32,022 nucleotides of DNA from assembly GCA_964517155.1 (NCBI GenBank), contig CAZFAZ010000067.1, forward strand, positions 1-32,022, written 5' to 3'. This document shows positions 23,148 through 32,022 of the stretch, in pieces. The translations under genes and the position numbers were made by a program. Position 1 is the stretch's first letter. Each line of letters starts with the position of its first letter. This DNA comes from an uncultured Thermoplasmatales archaeon. Lineage in GTDB: Archaea; Thermoplasmatota; E2; DHVEG-1. The notes below the pieces were generated by a model, which saw only the letters and a list, made by a program, of their open reading frames with translations, did not search any database and was not told the origin of the DNA.

Positions 23148-26100
23148 ATGACTGACGAAGAACAACCAAAAAAAGAATATATACGAACTCTTGAATCTGA
23201 GATGAAACGCGCATTCATTGATTATTCGATGAGTGTTATTATGAGCAGAGCCTTACCCGATGTTCGTGATGGTCTAAAACCTGTACATAGGCGTATTTTG
23301 TATGCCATGAATGATATGGGACTTACCAGCAGAAGTGCTTATAAGAAATCCGCAAGAGTGGTGGGTGAAACTTTAGGAAAATATCATCCACATGGTGATC
23401 AAGCAGTATATGACTCAATGGTTCGCATGGCTCAAGATTTCTCACTTCGTTATCCTTTAGTTGATGGGCAAGGTAACTTTGGTAGTGTTGATGGTGATAG
23501 TGCTGCTGCTATGCGTTATTGTGTAACAGGCGACACTCTTTTATTAACTGAAGAGGGCATGATGGAAATAAAGGATGTATCTGATGAAGTTGAAACAGAT
23601 ATAGACTTAAAAATTATGAATTACCAACATAATGTTACAAAAGCATCTAAGTTTTTTAATTCAGGAAAACATCCAACGATTCATCTACAAACATTACAAG
23701 GATATGAGTTAGAAGGATCTTACAATCATCCATTATTAACATGGGTTAATGATAATGGATTACCTCATATTAAATGGAAAGCATTGGAAGATCTTTCAGA
23801 AAATGATTTTGTTGTATTGAATAGAAAAACAAATTTATTTAACATAAAAGAGATTAAACTCCAACAATATTTTCCACCTATAACTAATAAACAAATTAAT
23901 TTTGATTTACCTAAAATATTAAACAATGATTTAGCATTCTTACTTGGCGCTCTTGTTTCTGAAGGAAGTTTTCATAACAATCAAATTTTATTTAATAATG
24001 CCAATGAAGAATTTTATAATCTTGTCAAACAAGCCATACTAAATCAATTTCAAAAAATAAATTTATATGAACGAAAGTTAAAAACATCCAATTGTGTTGA
24101 ATTAAGCATTTACCCTAAACAAATCGTTCAATTTCTCATAAATATAGGTTTAACACAAGTTAAATCGGATGAAAAAGAAATACCTCATACTATTCTAAAG
24201 GCAAAAAAAGAAACAATTGTTGCCTTTTTAAAGGGTTTATTTGAAGGTGATGGATCTGTTATTTTTAAAACAGATAAGAGACACGGTGGACATAGTATTG
24301 AACTAACCTATAATTCAAAAAGTAAAAAGTTAATTTATCAGTTAAAAACACTTCTATTAAACTTTGGAATTGTTACAACCAAACCATATGTCGATAAAAG
24401 AAACAATTGTTATAAGTTGATTGTTTCTGACATTTCAAATATTAAGAAATTTAGAGATGAGATAGGTTTTGCATGCTCTAAAAAATCCAATATTTTAGAA
24501 AAAGTTAATTTAATCAATGAAGATCGTATGAGCAAAAATGATTATATTCCATTTTTATCTGAGTATCTTCGTAACAAATATGATCATCAAGTTATTAAAA
24601 AGCATAATTTTGATAGGTATAACAAATTAAAAGAAAAATATGAGATACTTGCAAGTATTGTAGATTCGGTTGACAAAAAACTTCTTGATGAATTATTAAA
24701 ATATGAATATTTTTTCAACCAAGTAAAAACAATTAAACCAACTAATCAAGAAAAAAATGTCTATTCATTACGCGTTGATAGCAACTGTCATTCATATATT
24801 GCAAATGGTTTTACAAACCATAATACCGAATCAAGACTTGCAAAAATATCTGCACTTATGCTCCAGGATATAGAAAAAGAAACAGTTGAATGGACAGATA
24901 ATTTTGATGGTAGCCTCAAGGAACCACTTATGCTTCCTGCAGTTTTACCAAATTTACTAGTAAATGGTTCATCAGGAATTGCTGTTGGAATGGCAACCAA
25001 TATGGCGCCACATAACATTACAGAAGTAATCGATGGTACAATACAGGTCATAGATAATCCTGATATAAGTACGGCAGACCTTATGGAAACAATCCAAGGC
25101 CCTGATTTTCCAACGGGTGGAATTATTTATGGTCGAGGAGGAATACTGCAAGCTTATTCTGAAGGAAAAGGCCTTGTTAGAGTAAGAGCGAAAACCCATT
25201 TCGAGGGTGACGAGAAAAAGAAAATAATCATTACAGAACTTCCTTATCAAGTCAACAAAGCAAACCTTCTCAAAACAATTGCAGAGCTTGTTAAAGATAA
25301 AAAAATAGAGGGTATAAGTGATCTGCGCGACGAGTCAGACAGGGAGGGCATGCGTGTTGTAATTGAGCTTAAACGTGATGCAATTGAAGATGTAGTTTTA
25401 TCTCAGCTTTTTAAGCATACTGAAATGCAGACAACTTTTGGAATTAATAATTTAGCAATTGTTGAAGGAGAGCCAAAGATTCTCAAGCTCAAAGAAATAA
25501 TTCAGCATTTTATAGAGTACCGTGTGCTTGTAATTACTCGCAGAACTAATTATGATTTAAAGAAAGCACAGGAAAAAATGCATATTCTTGAAGGTTTTAT
25601 GATTGCTCTTAAAAACATTGATGAAGTAATAAAAATTATTAGAGCAAGTAAAACTGTTGATGAAGCAAAACAAAGACTCATACAAAGATTTGAATTTACA
25701 GATATACAAGTAAAAGCAATACTTGACCTTCGTCTGCAAAAGTTAACTGGCATGGAAATTGAAGCAGTCGAGCGTGATTATAATGAAACTAAAAAATTAA
25801 TCGAGCAACTTGAATGGCTTTTATCTGATAAACAGCATATTCTTGATGAAATTAAAAGAGAATTAATAGATATAAAAGAAAAATTTGGTGATGAGCGTCG
25901 AACACAAATAGTTGAAGGTGAAATCGACATAGATATGGAGGATTTAATACCAGTTCAAGATGTTGTAATTACAATTACTGAAACAGGTTATATCAAACGA
26001 ATTCCATGTGAAACATATAGAGTACAGAGACGTGGTGGAAAAGGCCTTGTTGGAATGAAAACAAAAGAAGAAGATATAGTTGTTGATTCATTTATCACAA

Positions 26101-26918
26101 GTACTCATGACTACATAATGTTTTTCACAAACCAGGGTAAATGTTTCTGGCTTAAAGGTTATAAGATACCTGAAGGTAGCCGCCATCACAAAGGAAAAGC
26201 AATAATCAACTTGCTTCCAAGACTTGAAGAAGGTGAATACGTAGAAACCGCAATTCCAATTCATGAGTTTGATGAAAACCATTACCTTGTTTTTGCAACC
26301 AAGAACGGCATCATTAAAAAAACAGTTCTCTCAGCATACAGCAACATTCGTGTTAATGGCGTACGTGCAATAAACCTGGATGAAGGCGATGAACTCATTG
26401 AAACAAGACTATCTGATGGAAACCAGACAATCATGATTGCGACAGCAAACGGTCAAGCATGCAGATTTGATGAAAAAGAAACAAGGGCCATGGGACGTGT
26501 CACACGAGGAGTAATCGGAGTAAGATTAAGAAAAGGCGATAAAGTAGTCTCAATGGCAGTAGTAGGTGAAGAAGGAAACTTGCTTACTATTACTGAAAAC
26601 GGTTTTGGAAAAAGATCACCCATTAGCGAATACCGAAAAACACACCGTTGTAGTAAAGGCGTTAGAACAATTATTACAAACGAAAGAAATGGTAAAGTAC
26701 TCTGGGTTAAAGAAGTCGAAGACGATGATGAAATAATGCTTACCAGCCGTGAGGGAATGATGGTACGAATCCCTGTAAACGGCATACGCGTACAAGGCCG
26801 AAGCACGATGGGTGTCACAATTATGAAGCTCAACGAAGGAGATAAAGTCGTAAGCGTTGCAAAAATGAAAGAAGAAGTTGAAGAAGAAAACGTAGAATGT
26901 GAAAATGATAATATATAA
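23148..26918 (+). CDS. gyrA: DNA gyrase subunit A precursor containing an intein (821 aa after splicing)
   Basis: [28 protein letters not shown]|intein|[21 protein letters not shown], GyrA-box QRRGGKG, beta-pinwheel CTD. Confidence 0.98.
23520..24824 (+). mobile_element. 435-aa intein with LAGLIDADG homing endonuclease in GyrA
   Basis: Starts CVTGDT; block [18 protein letters not shown] motifs [12 protein letters not shown] and [10 protein letters not shown]; ends VYSLRV...ANGFTNHN with Thr at +1; removal restores AAAMRYTESRL. Confidence 0.95.
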
Positions 26919-26953
26919 CAATAAGACAATCCTAAATTATACAATTGCGCCAT

Positions 26954-26965
26954 AAAGTTTATATA
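26954..26965 (+). promoter_or_regulatory. BRE/TATA promoter for the short ORF at 27019
   Basis: AAAG-TTTATATA matches the archaeal BRE-TATA consensus, about 55 nt upstream of the ATG. Confidence 0.55.
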
Positions 26966-27018
26966 CTTACAAGACGCTATTATTATTTAGATTTTATAAT
27001 AAATGGAGGAACAAAAAA

Positions 27019-27078
27019 ATGCCAACAAAATCAATGGCCTCTTTTGGAAAGTGGCTTGCTCTTAAAAAAGAAGAATAA
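27019..27078 (+). CDS. 19-aa short ORF MPTKSMASFGKWLALKKEE; candidate precursor peptide
   Basis: GGAGG SD at 27005-27009, 9 nt before the ATG; TATA upstream; hairpin downstream; first gene of a peptide-modification-type cluster. Confidence 0.5.
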   Translation: MPTKSMASFGKWLALKKEE

Positions 27079-27090
27079 ACATTACGATCA

Positions 27091-27108
27091 GAGGGTTTTT
27101 TAACCTTC
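27091..27108 (+). terminator. Hairpin after the short ORF (terminator or stability stem)
   Basis: GAGGGTT-TTTT-AACCTTC (7 bp with one G-U), followed by a T-rich stretch around 27116-27124. Confidence 0.45.
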
Positions 27109-27174
27109 AATCAACTTTTTATTTATAAAAATGCATTAGTGGTTTTGATAGTATTGATAAAGGATGCATAATAC

Positions 27175-28383
27175 GTGTGTGAAGAGATTTTAAAAAAGAA
27201 ACAGAAATTGTATATCTTGCGAGGAGAACATATTTTTGTAATAAAGGCCTTTGAAGATGTTGACTCTTCATCATTTAGATATTCCATACCACTTAAATAC
27301 AAAGATCAAATACCAATTTTTCTTGATTTAAAAGGCAATTTTTTATCTTATGAATTAATTAAAGAAAAGGAGTGTCACAATAGAGTAATTATATTTAGAA
27401 TACCAAAAATGAAAAAGGATGAAGAGATTAAAATTTCATTAGATTATTGGACTTTAGCAATAAAAAATGAGTATAAATGCGCTGAGTATAAGAACGACAT
27501 CGATCTTAAAAAATGGACAGATTCTACGGAATCTATAAAATCGGATAATATTTTGATAAAGATCACTTCAAAAATATTAAGAGGTTTTACAAAAAAACAA
27601 TTGAATTTTATTCATAATGTATCGATATGGAACGCATTTCATCGATCGTTTTTCACGTTTATTAAAAGGAATTTAGTAGATCATCCTAGGTTAAATAAGG
27701 TGTTTTTATCAGATGTATATTGGTATCGACTTGAGGATTCGGTTTCATCACTTATTTTTGGCAGTGTTTGCGCTGGAAAAGCAAATCTACAAGCAGCTAT
27801 TCTTCGTGCAAATGGCATCCCTTCAAGAATTCTAATCTCAACTAGCATGTTTTTCGGAAAAGATCAATGGTTAGATTCTCAGCATTACTTAGTTGAAGCA
27901 TATACTTTAGACCGCGGATGGATTAGAGTTCAATCTGGGCAAATATGTACCCCATCAAAAGATAACATCATTTTAAGGATAGTAAACCCCGAAGAAGAGA
28001 ACATTGCAGGTAATGGTTTCAGTGAAACAGGTGGCGCAGCTCCTTGGTTTTGGTTTGATAATAAAAATGTGTTTTTTGGAATTCCTAAAGGACATATGAG
28101 CTATAAAATCCCGAAAACAAAAAAAGTAGGATTTCCAGCTACGAGAGGATGGAGGGAAGGTTATATCGAGGTTCCAAAAGAGATTAGCGAAAAAATGATT
28201 AAAGCAACAGATGAAGCATGGGAGTTGTTTTTTGAAATTTCTTCAAGAAATAATAAAGACGGAGATAATTTTAACAAAGCAAAAATGCTTCATAAGGACT
28301 CGATAGAAAATCTAAAGAATAATGATTTCAAAAGTTATATTGATACTATGAAACATGTAAAAGAGTTATATCTTGCCCTCTAA
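27175..28383 (+). CDS. Transglutaminase-like (papain-fold) domain protein
   Basis: GSVCAGKANLQAAILRANGIPSR (catalytic Cys), QHYLVEAY (His), GWIRVQ (Gln where Asp is usual). Confidence 0.8.
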   Translation: MCEEILKKKQKLYILRGEHIFVIKAFEDVDSSSFRYSIPLKYKDQIPIFLDLKGNFLSYELIKEKECHNRVIIFRIPKMKKDEEIKISLDYWTLAIKNEYKCAEYKNDIDLKKWTDSTESIKSDNILIKITSKILRGFTKKQLNFIHNVSIWNAFHRSFFTFIKRNLVDHPRLNKVFLSDVYWYRLEDSVSSLIFGSVCAGKANLQAAILRANGIPSRILISTSMFFGKDQWLDSQHYLVEAYTLDRGWIRVQSGQICTPSKDNIILRIVNPEEENIAGNGFSETGGAAPWFWFDNKNVFFGIPKGHMSYKIPKTKKVGFPATRGWREGYIEVPKEISEKMIKATDEAWELFFEISSRNNKDGDNFNKAKMLHKDSIENLKNNDFKSYIDTMKHVKELYLAL

Positions 28384-28396
28384 TCATTTACAGAGA

Positions 28397-30217
28397 CTAG
28401 TTATAACTTTTGCCAATTTTATTCAACAACAAAAGTATTTTTTCTTCCAGGTTTTTATCAATTACTTCATGGTCAAAAGGATTTGATTGTAAATTATAAA
28501 AGAAACTTTTTTTCTCATCTAGATGATCATCAATTAACTGTATGTATTTTTGATATGTTTTGGAATCGTATTTTCTTTTATGTAAAAAATCGAAAAAGCT
28601 AGACTGCATTTGTGGATGACAGTCAAGATTTAACAACAATTCAAAGTATTTTTTTGCCTCAGAGTATTGTTTTACAGCTAAGTGTAAAAAAGGCAATATG
28701 TAAAAAAGATTAATCATCTGTAAAAAATTATCCTCTCTTCTGATATATATGCAATAATAACATAATTCTTTAGATAGATAAGTTTCAATATTCTTGATGA
28801 GTAGTTTAATGCTTTTTTCGTCATTTATCCATTTATCGCTACTTAGATATTTACAAAAATCTTTAATTCCATAAAAATAGTTAAATCTATCTTCAAAGTT
28901 TTTGCTTTTAATTAGTATTCTATTAAAAGGATCGTGATCAACTGATATTGGAGACATAATTACTCTTACAGTTGGAAATTGCAAAACTTTGTTTGTAAAG
29001 TCAATAATAAAAAGTTCCCAATTGTTTTTTTCACAAATTTCAATTATTGTATTTACATCATCATAAAAATCATTATTTATTGGGAAATGTATTTTTTTAA
29101 TAGATATTTTTTCTCCTTTTTCAAGAAATGAATAATCACCATAATAATCATAATCTCTAAGGAAATACTTATATTCGTTATCCAACCCGGCATATTTTTT
29201 CTGCATTTTTTTTGTCCATGTATCATACAAAATATCCAAAGAACTAGGTGTTTTTTTATCTTTATCGTGAAGACCTTTTTTATCTAAAATTAACATTTGT
29301 AAATGTTCAGTAAAACATCTGATAATTGCTTCTTCTAACTTAAAATGCGATCCGACGCTTATCCTTTTATAATCTCTGTCTTTTTTTAATTTGTTTTTCT
29401 CAAATTCAAGATTTTTATTGATAAATAAAACTCCTACTACGGGAACTACATTTCCAAGAGACATATCCTTTATTATTGGTTCAATATTCAGCGATTTTAA
29501 AAGACTTATACTTTTTTGTATTTCATGGTTTTTAATTGAAGACTGATCAATTGTTGGACATAAAAGTTTTTCAGTCATTATTTTAATTATGGCATATCTT
29601 TCAAAGATTTCAAAAGATGCCTGGGTTATCGCTTCTTCATAAGTATTGCCACTAGCCAAGCCATTTGTAGTGCTGTTCAAATCAATTAAAAAAGTAGGTA
29701 TTTTTTCATATTTACTAGTTTTAAAAGAATATGCATCAACTAGTGTATTTAACAATCCCTCATTTTTAAATAAATTATAGGTTTCTTGGCATATATCCTT
29801 AACAAAAAATTTATTGACATTAAGGACGTTAATGGAATCATGATCATCTGTTTTTAAGTATCCTCTTAAAAAAGATCTGCTTTCAACAACGTGCAACAAA
29901 TCCTGAAAAATACTAGGATTTTTTGGCAATGGAATTTTAAATTCTATGAATCCTGTAGAATATCTTTCAACAAGTTCGGCATAAGCACCAGCCATTGCCA
30001 ATTGTTTTGATGTTGCTTTTCCATATTGCCCCCATCCTAATTCATTAATAAATGCATGGCCAAGTACTATATCAAAATCTTGAATAGAAACATTTTTTTC
30101 ATCATAGCAAATCTGTAATCCAATCTCGTTAAACCCTTCTTTTATTCGTTTTACCGTGTTTTCAGGATAATCTGATTTAGAATTATTGTATATCTTTGGT
30201 GAATTTTGTAGTTTCAT
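28397..30217 (-). CDS. YcaO-family ATP-dependent peptide backbone-modifying enzyme with a C-terminal helical extension
   Basis: YGKAT...AMAGAYAELVERY, STTNGLASGNTYEEAITQASFEIFERY, AIIRCFTEHLQ, FPTVRVI; no C-terminal PxP motif. Confidence 0.9.
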   Translation of the reverse strand: MKLQNSPKIYNNSKSDYPENTVKRIKEGFNEIGLQICYDEKNVSIQDFDIVLGHAFINELGWGQYGKATSKQLAMAGAYAELVERYSTGFIEFKIPLPKNPSIFQDLLHVVESRSFLRGYLKTDDHDSINVLNVNKFFVKDICQETYNLFKNEGLLNTLVDAYSFKTSKYEKIPTFLIDLNSTTNGLASGNTYEEAITQASFEIFERYAIIKIMTEKLLCPTIDQSSIKNHEIQKSISLLKSLNIEPIIKDMSLGNVVPVVGVLFINKNLEFEKNKLKKDRDYKRISVGSHFKLEEAIIRCFTEHLQMLILDKKGLHDKDKKTPSSLDILYDTWTKKMQKKYAGLDNEYKYFLRDYDYYGDYSFLEKGEKISIKKIHFPINNDFYDDVNTIIEICEKNNWELFIIDFTNKVLQFPTVRVIMSPISVDHDPFNRILIKSKNFEDRFNYFYGIKDFCKYLSSDKWINDEKSIKLLIKNIETYLSKELCYYCIYIRREDNFLQMINLFYILPFLHLAVKQYSEAKKYFELLLNLDCHPQMQSSFFDFLHKRKYDSKTYQKYIQLIDDHLDEKKSFFYNLQSNPFDHEVIDKNLEEKILLLLNKIGKSYN

Positions 30218-30227
30218 AGCAAAACAC

Positions 30228-31514
30228 CTAACTTTTCTTAAAAAACATGATATTTAGCGGATATTTCATAGAGTTTTTATAGTAATATACTTCATAGCCG
30301 ATTTTTTTAAGATAATTCGCAGCAAATTCTGTTCTTTTCAACAATTCTTCATCATCAACATGCGGTTTTATATTTTCTGCAATCGTATTTTTCATACATG
30401 AAAATTGATTTATGATACCCATATCCAAATCAAATTTTTTAAAAAATTCCAAGGTTTCCATAAACTCAGAATTTGTTTCAGACGGAAATCCTATAATTGC
30501 CTCGGATCCTAACTTAACATTGTGATATTTTTTCAATGCTGTAAAAGCATTGCACAATTCTTCCCGTGTATAATATCGATTCATTAGTTGAAGAATCCTA
30601 GTATTTGCAGATTGAATGGCAGAAAATACCCACGTAATTTTACCAGTTTTCAATAAATCCTCAAATTCATCTAAATGTCTAATAAGCCATCTTGGAGATA
30701 TTGACTCGATGTGTATAGTATAACTACCATTAATCTTAAGTATTTCTTTTAGCAACTCAATAAAATTTGTTTTGATATCTAGGCCATAATTACCCAGATC
30801 GTCAGATACAATTCTAAAGATTTTATAACCTTCATTTAATCCTCTTTTAAATTCTGTAACGCATTGCGATATTGCCTTACTTTGCAGAGGCCCTATAGCA
30901 TTTTTGATTGAGCAATAAGAACAATTACCGAGACAACCGTTAGACACTCTTAAAAAAAATGCTTTTTTGCCCATAATTTTTGCCAAGTATTTTTTTGAAT
31001 TGTCACCATAAATCATTTTAGAGATAAATACGGATAAAGTTATGTATTTATCATAAATACTTGATAAAAAAGAGTTTGACAAATAATTATCTATAACCTG
31101 ACCTGCTTGTTGAATATCTGGATTCCACCATAATTTATTTGTATCAGATATCTCATCAAACTTTGTTTTATTTTTTGGAAATAACTCGTCAACTTTTTCT
31201 GGATTTTTTACCAAATCTTTTGTTACTACTGTTTTTCCATTAAAAATTTCTTTAAGTTCTTCCTTTTTTACCTCAGGCAAACATCCAATAACAATTAATT
31301 CTGCAGGATATTTCTGAAATTCTTCTACTTTTTCCATCGAACTTTTTGCTGCTTTATTTGAATATGCACAAGTATTTAAGATTATTAAATCTGCTTTTTT
31401 AGGATTTTTTACCATCTCAAAATTATTTTTTAAAAGATAATTGTTGATTCTCCTTGTATCCAAACTTCTACGAGTACAAACAAGATTTCCGTACAAATAA
31501 AATTTTTTTACCAT
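30228..31514 (-). CDS. Methylthiotransferase-type (MiaB/RimO/MtaB-like) radical SAM enzyme lacking a TRAM domain
   Basis: UPF0004-type Cys ligands VCTRRSLD, LNTCAY, VIGCL; GCLGNCSYC; IQSAN..IL..MNR.Y; IIGFPSET; the protein ends shortly after the radical SAM barrel. Confidence 0.85.
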   Translation of the reverse strand: MVKKFYLYGNLVCTRRSLDTRRINNYLLKNNFEMVKNPKKADLIILNTCAYSNKAAKSSMEKVEEFQKYPAELIVIGCLPEVKKEELKEIFNGKTVVTKDLVKNPEKVDELFPKNKTKFDEISDTNKLWWNPDIQQAGQVIDNYLSNSFLSSIYDKYITLSVFISKMIYGDNSKKYLAKIMGKKAFFLRVSNGCLGNCSYCSIKNAIGPLQSKAISQCVTEFKRGLNEGYKIFRIVSDDLGNYGLDIKTNFIELLKEILKINGSYTIHIESISPRWLIRHLDEFEDLLKTGKITWVFSAIQSANTRILQLMNRYYTREELCNAFTALKKYHNVKLGSEAIIGFPSETNSEFMETLEFFKKFDLDMGIINQFSCMKNTIAENIKPHVDDEELLKRTEFAANYLKKIGYEVYYYKNSMKYPLNIMFFKKS

Positions 31515-31602
31515 TTATCATCTTTAGTTAATATAATTTAGATATATTTAGTTATTTAAAAAAAGCTTTATGAACAATTCATTATATCTCATTTTGTCAT
31601 CT

Positions 31603-32022
31603 ATGAAAATTTTATTTATATGGGCAGGGCCACCAACAACAGGACATATTGGAAAGAAAATAAATTTATTTAATGAACTACGTTCAAGGATTTTATTCTC
31701 CCCGAGATCTCCAACATTTCCATTACTTGCAAATATTACGCCCAATGTACATGAAATTGATATCATTGAAGCCTTAACAGTTAAAGATGTTGATTTTGAC
31801 AGAAAATATGATTTAGTAGGTATATCTTGTTTAACTCGTTTTGCTTTTACCGCATACAACATAGCAGATGGATTTAGACGAAAAGGAACAAAAGTCGTAA
31901 TTGGTGGTTGGCATGCATCAGCACTCCCCAAAGAAGCAAAACAACACGCAGATGCAGTAGTAATAGGTGAGGCAGAGGAAACATGGCCACAGCTTTTAAA
32001 TGATTTTGAAAAAAAATCACTT
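31603..32022 (+). CDS. Cobalamin-binding domain of a B12-dependent radical SAM enzyme (partial; runs off the window)
   Basis: Open frame MKILFIWAGPP...PLLANITP...YDLVGISCLT...AYNIADGFRRKGTKVVIGGWHASALPKEAKQHADAVVIGEAEETW; not in the ORF track because it has no stop in the window. Confidence 0.88.
   Translation, partial: MKILFIWAGPPTTGHIGKKINLFNELRSRILFSPRSPTFPLLANITPNVHEIDIIEALTVKDVDFDRKYDLVGISCLTRFAFTAYNIADGFRRKGTKVVIGGWHASALPKEAKQHADAVVIGEAEETWPQLLNDFEKKSL

Follow-up and report, generated by a model that had tools for sequence, protein, structure and literature searches.

What do five tightly packed genes that follow gyrA in an uncultured Thermoplasmatales archaeon do together, and is their substrate a peptide? 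The genes lie at the end of a 32022 bp contig (C67; CAZFAZ010000067.1 of assembly GCA_964517155.1), which in its entirety is the stretch of DNA analysed here and is called the window below; it belongs to a genome bin of 1.59 Mb in 91 contigs that is 90.8% complete. A reading made earlier from the nucleotide sequence (the original prediction) had placed here a short open reading frame (ORF), a transglutaminase-like enzyme, a YcaO protein, a methylthiotransferase-like radical S-adenosylmethionine (rSAM) enzyme and a B12-binding rSAM enzyme, and had taken them for a candidate locus for a peptide made by the ribosome and modified after its translation (a RiPP). ORF coordinates and Pfam matches put all five genes where it had located them. 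Our answer, drawn from comparative sequence analysis, is that they probably (at a rough probability of 0.7) form a RiPP-type peptide-modification cluster that, within the limits of the search, is confined to a single family of uncultivated Thermoplasmatota.

The short peptide genes and their company

In the peptide encoded by the short ORF of the window, a small residue follows the initiator Met, Phe stands directly before a Gly at residue 10, and a hydrophobic stretch is followed by a short tail of mixed Lys/Glu composition. Related genes were collected around homologues of the neighbouring YcaO, which form about 50 clusters at 40–53% identity and of similar length (P0002–P0051 of 76 matches). 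Of 196 candidate stretches in species-representative genomes 146 were confirmed, and of 570 metagenome contigs 227; the best 80 from each source were retained, and the genomes of two relatives were added. Forty loci carried a close, full-length-type YcaO, seven of which were near-identical to others and were dropped (L091, L093, L095, L101, L107, L110 and L113), leaving 33 non-redundant loci. Intergenic scans, from which the genes were re-derived by their coordinates, together with one gene added by a profile (in L114), yielded 31 related peptide genes of 19–35 codons at 23 of the 33 loci, with two to three copies each at seven loci.

All members share one layout. In 29 of the 30 genes listed, one of the small residues Pro, Ala, Val, Ser or Thr follows the initiator Met; an invariant Gly stands 8–13 residues from the start, after an aromatic or hydrophobic residue; hydrophobic residues occupy positions +2 and +3 from this Gly; and the peptide closes with a tail of 4–17 residues, mostly charged, which is acidic in most of the window's clade (clade A) and basic in the other clades. 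The peptide clades have no conserved Cys, Ser or Thr in common. Clade A does conserve a Ser at −2 and a Lys at +1 of the Gly, neither of which is conserved in clades B and C. The residue at the boundary of core and tail is Asn in most clade-A peptides, Asp or Asn in clade C and Lys in clade B; such residues would fit cleavage by Asn/Asp- or Lys-specific Cys peptidases, although the window peptide, of clade A, has Lys there.

Judged by their codon variation, translation signals and occurrence, these short ORFs are genes that are translated and are peculiar to this YcaO clade. Within the nine-codon core of clade A, codon positions 1, 2 and 3 have summed entropies of 4.7, 2.8 and 10.1, respectively, and pairwise codon differences amount to 350 synonymous versus 201 non-synonymous ones, AGC/TCT serine switches included. 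Shine–Dalgarno (SD)-like motifs lie 4–16 nt 5′ of 25 of the 30 peptide genes (3.6% in random 13-mers), and a T5+ run follows within 45 nt 3′ of 16 of the 30 (background 22%). A peptide profile recovered 31 ORFs at E ≤ 1e-4 in these loci, the next best reaching 0.46, a separation that is partly circular because 30 of the ORFs built the model. Against 82,004 small ORFs of the genome it found the window ORF only (E 1.4e-6; next best 1.8), and against 63,396 small ORFs around distant YcaO relatives it gave no match (best E 0.25); no family peptide was found near the genome's other rSAM arrays, near its second YcaO on contig C31 or around the distant YcaOs. The position and strand of the peptide gene vary, being 5′ of the transglutaminase-like gene, 5′ of a C25-family peptidase gene and ycaO, divergent from ycaO, or between the C25 and B12-rSAM genes, which argues against an upstream ORF or attenuator of any one gene.

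The peptides also follow the YcaO phylogeny. In a quick maximum-likelihood tree (IQ-TREE) of the 33 YcaOs, a single clade of 15 members (Shimodaira–Hasegawa-like approximate likelihood ratio test, SH-aLRT, 97) holds the loci whose peptides are of clade A, and the two other main peptide types lie in its sister group. Three changes suffice to place the four peptide types on the tree, no smaller number being possible, and none of 200 shuffles reached so low a value; since kin share labels, this result shows clustering, not independent events. On this tree, peptide types co-diversify with YcaO. The proposal that these genes jointly modify a peptide is supported by this pattern and by the presence of related short ORFs at 23 of the 33 loci.

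A different short ORF occurs in L014 (2162–2275, + strand; 37 codons), where it sits between a GNAT/DUF2085 gene and a B12-rSAM gene beside a clade-A-type ycaO. It follows a GGTGAT motif, encodes a Cys pair and a Lys-rich tail, and may be a divergent precursor.

Partner genes were counted by tblastn with representatives and by Pfam annotation of 121 neighbours at 11 loci; all counts are lower bounds, because many contigs are only 3–9 kb long. The original prediction had asked whether the neighbours of YcaO, with a similar short ORF among them, recur beside its homologues, and to a large extent they do: a B12-binding rSAM enzyme, in two sub-types, accompanies 23 of the 33 YcaOs, and the transglutaminase-like gene was found at 13 of the 33 loci, all within the window's YcaO clade (13 of 15, and 0 of 18 outside it). 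A MiaB-like rSAM gene adjoins ycaO at seven of the 33 loci, with an eighth case 5 kb away. The sister group outside the transglutaminase-like clade has C25-family peptidases (11 of 33 loci), GNAT acetyltransferases (7 of 33) and PaaK/F390-synthetase-like AMP-ligases (5 of 33). Each locus has one YcaO, except for a partial second copy in L089. In L010 (4981–9675; clade B) there is no adjacent B12-rSAM gene; the neighbours are instead a SPASM-domain rSAM enzyme, a second rSAM enzyme, a PAPS-reductase-like ATP-pyrophosphatase, a GFO/IDH-type oxidoreductase and a methyltransferase.

The YcaO system is accessory and patchy among relatives. A close YcaO (E ≤ 1e-80) was found in three of 53 other genomes of the same family; the 347 genomes that represent 49 other families of the phylum gave none, nor did two other genomes of the same genus (83% and 88% complete).

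Layout and enzymes of the locus

The left part of the window contains housekeeping genes (purL/purM-like, gyrB and gyrA), and the features that follow are collected in Table 1. The TATA-box-like element would be a candidate archaeal promoter of the peptide gene, and the T6 run a candidate archaeal oligo-T terminator or attenuation point. The stop of the MiaB/RimO-like rSAM gene and the start of ycaO are 10 bp apart, and AGGTG overlaps the rSAM stop codon. The original prediction was right about this gap and its SD-like motif. It had called the two genes convergent, however, and they are co-directional on the minus strand; it is the pair that is convergent with the transglutaminase-like gene, the facing stops being 13 bp apart.

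Table 1. Features read in the right-hand part of the window, with positions counted from its first nucleotide.
Feature	Position	Strand	Basis or remark
gyrA	23148–26918	+	intein of ~425 residues (Intein_splicing match, residues 134–559) with LAGLIDADG homing-endonuclease domain
TATA-box-like TTTATATA	26958–26965	+	preceded by an A-rich stretch like a B recognition element (BRE); 54 nt 5′ of peptide ATG; read from sequence
Shine–Dalgarno-like GGAGG	27005–27009	+	9 nt 5′ of short-ORF ATG
Precursor-peptide gene (candidate), 19 codons, clade A	27019–27078	+	family match, third-position variation
T6 run	27096–27101	+	18 nt 3′ of peptide stop
Transglutaminase-like Cys/His enzyme, 402 aa	27175–28383	+	PF01841
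YcaO, 606 aa	28397–30217	−	PF02624, E 8e-40
MiaB/RimO-like rSAM enzyme, 428 aa, TRAM-less	30228–31514	−	UPF0004 and Radical_SAM
B12-binding rSAM enzyme, N-terminal 151 codons, cut by contig end	31570–32022	+	PF02310

Because the window is the whole contig, the locus runs off the assembly, as had been foreseen, and the B12-rSAM gene is cut at the contig end. The 3′ end of the contig does not overlap any other contig end of the genome, and no continuation was found. Contigs C57 and C58 were considered as the continuation and rejected, both overlapping the start of C33 by exactly 99 nt. These two contigs (7431 and 7421 bp, respectively) are 89.5% identical over their full length; they stem from a recent duplication or from two strain variants in the bin that gave rise to an assembly bubble.

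The YcaO protein comprises an ATP-dependent amide-activation domain and a C-terminal helical domain of ~180 amino acids. Its AlphaFold 2 (AF2) model has a predicted local distance difference test (pLDDT) value of 88.7, and the best full-length fold match is E. coli YcaO (4q86; template-modelling score 0.55–0.59, E 4e-20), followed by Methanocaldococcus jannaschii MJ1094. The order is reversed in a profile-to-PDB sequence search, with MJ1094 first (E 2e-23) and E. coli YcaO second; MusD, TruD and LynD are also significant sequence matches. MJ1094 acts on McrA, in which it forms thioglycine. McrA (MCR_alpha) was not found in the genome under study. Scores against the NCBIfam models are 70.8 bits for the McrA-glycine family TIGR03266 (cut-off 365), 65.6 for the E. 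coli YcaO family NF040716 (cut-off 700) and 65.3 for the SagD family TIGR03604 (cut-off 219). The isoelectric point (pI) of the window YcaO is 6.9 (6.93), so that the protein is not acidic, and no E1/ThiF-like partner was seen in the annotated neighbourhoods. E. coli YcaO is reported to thioamidate the ribosomal protein uL16 at Met82 (Met82–Gly83) and to have a pI of 4.4 (PMC13063428).

More distant relatives of this YcaO lie in other settings. Proteins of ~600 amino acids that are 29–34% identical to it are encoded in metagenome-assembled genomes (MAGs) of a heimdallarchaeote (L018, 9929–11734) and a woesearchaeote (L074, 10001–11803), one between the genes for S10 and L3–L4–L23–L2 and the other next to that for S7; their placement hints at a backbone modification of archaeal ribosomal proteins, by analogy with E. 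coli YcaO on uL16. A second YcaO of the same genome as the window (C31, 13226–15145, equivalent to L088, 8227–10146) is 639 amino acids long, has C-terminal TPR repeats, is 25% identical to the window YcaO and sits between uvrB/uvrC and HdrA/B/C-like genes with no similar short ORF nearby. In a Bacteroidales MAG (L016, 5800–13984) a 453-aa relative stands beside a PqqD-like RiPP recognition element (RRE), an Asn-synthase-like protein, a sulfotransferase and an APS kinase, which is a different RiPP-like architecture.

In the MiaB/RimO-like rSAM enzyme both Fe-S motifs are intact: the three Cys residues of the auxiliary-cluster domain (13, 49 and 78) and those of the radical-SAM CxxxCxxC motif (Cys194, 198 and 201) are invariant in nine sequences. 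The protein has no TRAM domain (no PF01938 match), carries an insert of ~50 residues between its domains and scores 211.3 bits against TIGR00089, below the cut-off of 251; the closest PDB sequence is RimO (4jc0). A separate, TRAM-bearing methylthiotransferase paralogue, encoded on C33 next to the lysyl-tRNA synthetase gene, is likely a tRNA enzyme. The truncated B12-rSAM protein is 52% identical to the full-length B12-rSAM enzyme that adjoins the YcaO of genome G023.

Elsewhere in the genome, three rSAM-rich clusters without a YcaO (C10, 1–7500, with C28, 18700–22030; C85, 3200–9800; and C33, 1–1800, with C57/C58) contain tandem B12-rSAM genes (3, 2 and 2 copies, respectively) and TRAM-less MiaB-like rSAM genes, as well as genes for sulfotransferases, a carbamoyltransferase, methyltransferases, a FemAB-like protein, AMP-ligases and UbiA.

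The transglutaminase-like protein scores 28.7 bits against PF01841 (cut-off 23), and its Cys199 and His237 are invariant in 11 homologues. A PDB sequence search gave no match to it. Its AF2 model (pLDDT 78) shows an N-terminal β-sandwich and a C-terminal helical domain and is closest in fold to the putative cysteine protease 3isr (E 6e-12), with TgpA also matching. The C25 proteins of the sister clades have the PorU sortase as their best NCBIfam match, far below the cut-off.

Proposed modification and competing explanations

Taken as a RiPP-type cluster, the locus suggests the following course. The precursor would have no long leader; its first ~14–15 residues would be the core, and its short charged C-terminus would serve as a handle in the manner of a follower. 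Since a small residue almost always comes second, the initiator Met is probably cleaved off. YcaO would phosphorylate the backbone amide at the invariant aromatic–Gly site, and by analogy with McrA thioglycine and E. coli uL16 it may then replace the oxygen by sulphur to give a thioamide, an outcome to which we assign slightly less than even odds. It is favoured because the nearest characterized relatives make thioamides and the Gly–aromatic context resembles that of McrA, and also because the peptides have no conserved residue that could be heterocyclized and no cyclodehydratase partner is seen. The B12-rSAM enzyme might C-methylate unactivated carbons of the hydrophobic core, and the TRAM-less MiaB/RimO-like enzyme might add a methylthio group as an optional tailoring step, both assignments being taken from family chemistry. 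The charged tail would be clipped, with or without transfer, by the transglutaminase-fold Cys/His enzyme, a role that C25 peptidases could fill in the sister clades. The GNAT and AMP-ligase genes of those clades suggest an N-terminus that is free and becomes acylated rather than one used for an amidine ring.

Several observations weigh against this course or against parts of it. The three NCBIfam scores (71, 66 and 65 bits) do not separate thioamide-forming from azoline-forming YcaO families, and TfuA (PF07812), the usual thioamidation partner, is absent from the 90.8% complete genome in a search that detected it in a control genome. The distant ~600-aa YcaO relatives found in ribosomal-protein operons of Heimdallarchaeota and Woesearchaeota MAGs imply that related enzymes may act on proteins, and the presence in the genome of about ten B12-rSAM paralogues and 5–6 TRAM-less rSAM enzymes, in clusters without a YcaO or a family peptide, implies that these two families may have other substrates. 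Since the contig end cuts the locus, its gene content is incomplete; in the window no RRE/PqqD-like domain, transporter or immunity gene was detected, with no match to PF05402 (RRE) in four window proteins at E ≤ 0.01. The family peptide was not found at ten of the 33 loci; at seven of these the contig stops no more than about 1 kb from the cluster, and the other three (L008, L104 and L165) have ample flanks. Lastly, the charge of the tail is not correlated with YcaO net charge or pI over 20 loci (rho −0.15, p 0.52). A complex prediction for the L086 YcaO with its 35-residue peptide scored 0.02, which weighs neither for nor against binding.

The alternative that survives best keeps the RiPP pathway and changes the YcaO chemistry: an oxazoline would form from the Ser at −2 (in clade A only), an amidine would form with the N-terminal or a Lys amine, or the enzyme would catalyse a MusD-like ATP-dependent cleavage. 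We consider this possible but doubtful. The absence of TfuA speaks for it, as do the fairly constant spacing of 8–11 residues from the N-terminus to the Gly and the significant matches to MusD, TruD and LynD, and clade A offers a conserved Ser and Lys in suitable places; clades B and C, however, do not keep these two residues, the annotated neighbourhoods showed no cyclodehydratase partner, and the score against the SagD family is 65 bits where the cut-off is 219. The sister-clade GNAT and AMP-ligase genes would moreover imply an N-terminus that is acylated, not cyclized.

A second alternative concerns the product. Radical-SAM enzymes are central to the pathways of pyrroloquinoline quinone (PQQ) and mycofactocin, and in a comparable way the aromatic–Gly pair could be cross-linked or otherwise modified and then excised by the Cys peptidase, giving an intracellular cofactor or small molecule. 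The strict conservation of one or two residues across clades is what cofactor precursors show, peptidases are constant partners, and the annotated neighbourhoods lack a conserved transporter or immunity gene. We nevertheless judge a cofactor improbable: the distribution is very patchy even within one family, no conserved redox-enzyme partner lies nearby, and multi-copy, diverging precursors combined with clade-specific GNAT, AMP-ligase and methylthiotransferase genes are more typical of natural-product RiPPs.

Modification of a cellular protein, for instance a ribosomal one, with the short ORF as regulator, accessory subunit or decoy, is very unlikely: E. coli YcaO, the best full-length fold match, has been assigned to uL16 thioamidation (PMC13063428), RimO, the nearest solved relative of the rSAM enzyme, modifies uS12, distant 600-aa relatives lie in ribosomal-protein operons (L018 and L074) and the YcaO gene of L010 adjoins that for S15, but family peptides turned up solely beside this YcaO clade, with which they co-diversify, most relatives with the same ribosome lack the system, and the YcaO itself is far from the E. 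coli type in score (65.6 versus a cut-off of 700 bits) and pI (6.9 versus 4.4). The original prediction had itself named housekeeping modification of tRNA or ribosomal proteins as the alternative; the cluster rSAM enzyme without TRAM, the YcaO far below the McrA and E. coli cut-offs and the patchy distribution do not agree with it.

We return, then, to the RiPP-type cluster as the preferred explanation. In its fullest form, which we offer tentatively and think unlikely to hold in every part, it would constitute a new RiPP class in which leaderless precursors of 19–35 residues with a charged follower tail become peptides of ~14 residues with a thioglycine-type backbone thioamide, formed by a TfuA-independent enzyme like E. 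coli YcaO, and B12-rSAM C-methylations, and with a methylthio group from the TRAM-less MiaB/RimO-like enzyme in some clades, that of the window included. If true, this would join YcaO and a RimO-like enzyme by a direct genetic link. It would also be the first use of the MiaB/RimO family on a peptide natural product of which we know, a statement that does not rest on a dedicated search.

Relation to known systems

Archaeal RiPPs are barely characterized. According to a preprint that surveys archaeal RiPPs, clusters of the YcaO and rSAM types are abundant, widespread and uncharacterized and could not be activated (bioRxiv 10.1101/2024.10.07.616454). Against this background the present family has a putative substrate of 19 residues that can be synthesized, one invariant residue as its likely target, and natural variants that differ in their tailoring enzymes. 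Work on it could show how TfuA-less, E. coli-like YcaOs act on peptides, by what means a short charged follower can stand in for a leader, and whether MiaB/RimO-like enzymes are able to methylthiolate peptides. Its precursor genes fell below the ORF-calling thresholds of 60–70 amino acids used here, and with the length limits of typical gene callers, standard annotation probably misses such genes. An SD motif, a small second residue, an aromatic–Gly pair and a charged tail together provide a search rule for the missed ones.

The original prediction did not recognize the gene combination as a named RiPP class, and neither do we: the defining features of the classes compared below are absent, and we found no description of the cluster type in the full-text literature, a search that did not extend to supplements. 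Among the publications searched, those naming both YcaO and Thermoplasmat* include none on this cluster type, by their titles and abstracts. Such clusters may be listed as generic YcaO hits in Supplementary Data 1 of the archaeal RiPP survey cited above.

With the thioamidation of McrA and by E. coli YcaO, the locus shares its nearest solved YcaO relatives, the lack of an E1/ThiF partner and a Gly beside hydrophobic or aromatic residues, and it has the two-domain, ~600-aa architecture of the E. coli enzyme. It differs in scores far below the cut-offs, in a genome without McrA, in a non-acidic protein and in the inferred substrate, which would be a peptide of 19–35 residues encoded next door and not a folded protein. 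The TfuA–YcaO RiPPs (thioamitides and others) have in common with it the RiPP logic and a YcaO that would install a backbone thioamide, but TfuA and a long leader are missing here and the tailoring set is entirely different. A SagD-type cyclodehydratase of the thiazole/oxazole-modified microcin (TOMM) kind does not correspond to the window YcaO in score, in partner or in a Cys/Ser/Thr core.

The other enzymes likewise have only partial counterparts. The window rSAM enzyme resembles MiaB, RimO and MtaB in its UPF0004 domain with three Cys, in its CxxxCxxC core and in having RimO as the nearest solved structure; it departs from them by the missing TRAM, the ~50-residue insert, a score below the cut-off and the presence of 5–6 paralogues. 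A transglutaminase-fold Cys/His enzyme beside a short precursor recalls the B protease of lasso peptide pathways, where, as the original prediction had mentioned, transglutaminase-like proteins act as leader peptidases. This likeness holds as an analogy; neither the Asn-synthetase-like lasso cyclase nor an RRE is present in the window or in 12 annotated close loci, and the window protein is set apart by its Pfam family (PF01841), its N-terminal β-sandwich and its C-terminal helical domain. With the C25/PorU-type sorting enzymes the connection is one of replacement, a C25-family protein taking the place of the transglutaminase-like enzyme in the sister clades.

The closest known logic is that of bottromycin. 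This pathway has the YcaOs BotC and BotCD, a BotP-type aminopeptidase, an amidohydrolase, an α/β-hydrolase and a P450. Among the neighbours annotated here with Pfam none of these tailoring genes appeared, their families not having been searched by name. The points in common are a stand-alone YcaO with a B12-rSAM enzyme and a short precursor with an N-terminal core and an apparently C-terminal handle, from which removal of Met is expected. The defining features of bottromycin are nevertheless absent: the present loci have one YcaO and not two, no conserved Cys for a thiazoline and an archaeal host, their tail of 4–17 charged residues contrasts with a follower of ~35 residues, and they add a MiaB-like rSAM enzyme and Cys peptidases. 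What appears to be new, as far as gene content and sequence comparison can indicate, is a YcaO RiPP-type cluster that combines a very short, follower-type precursor with an unusual set of enzymes.

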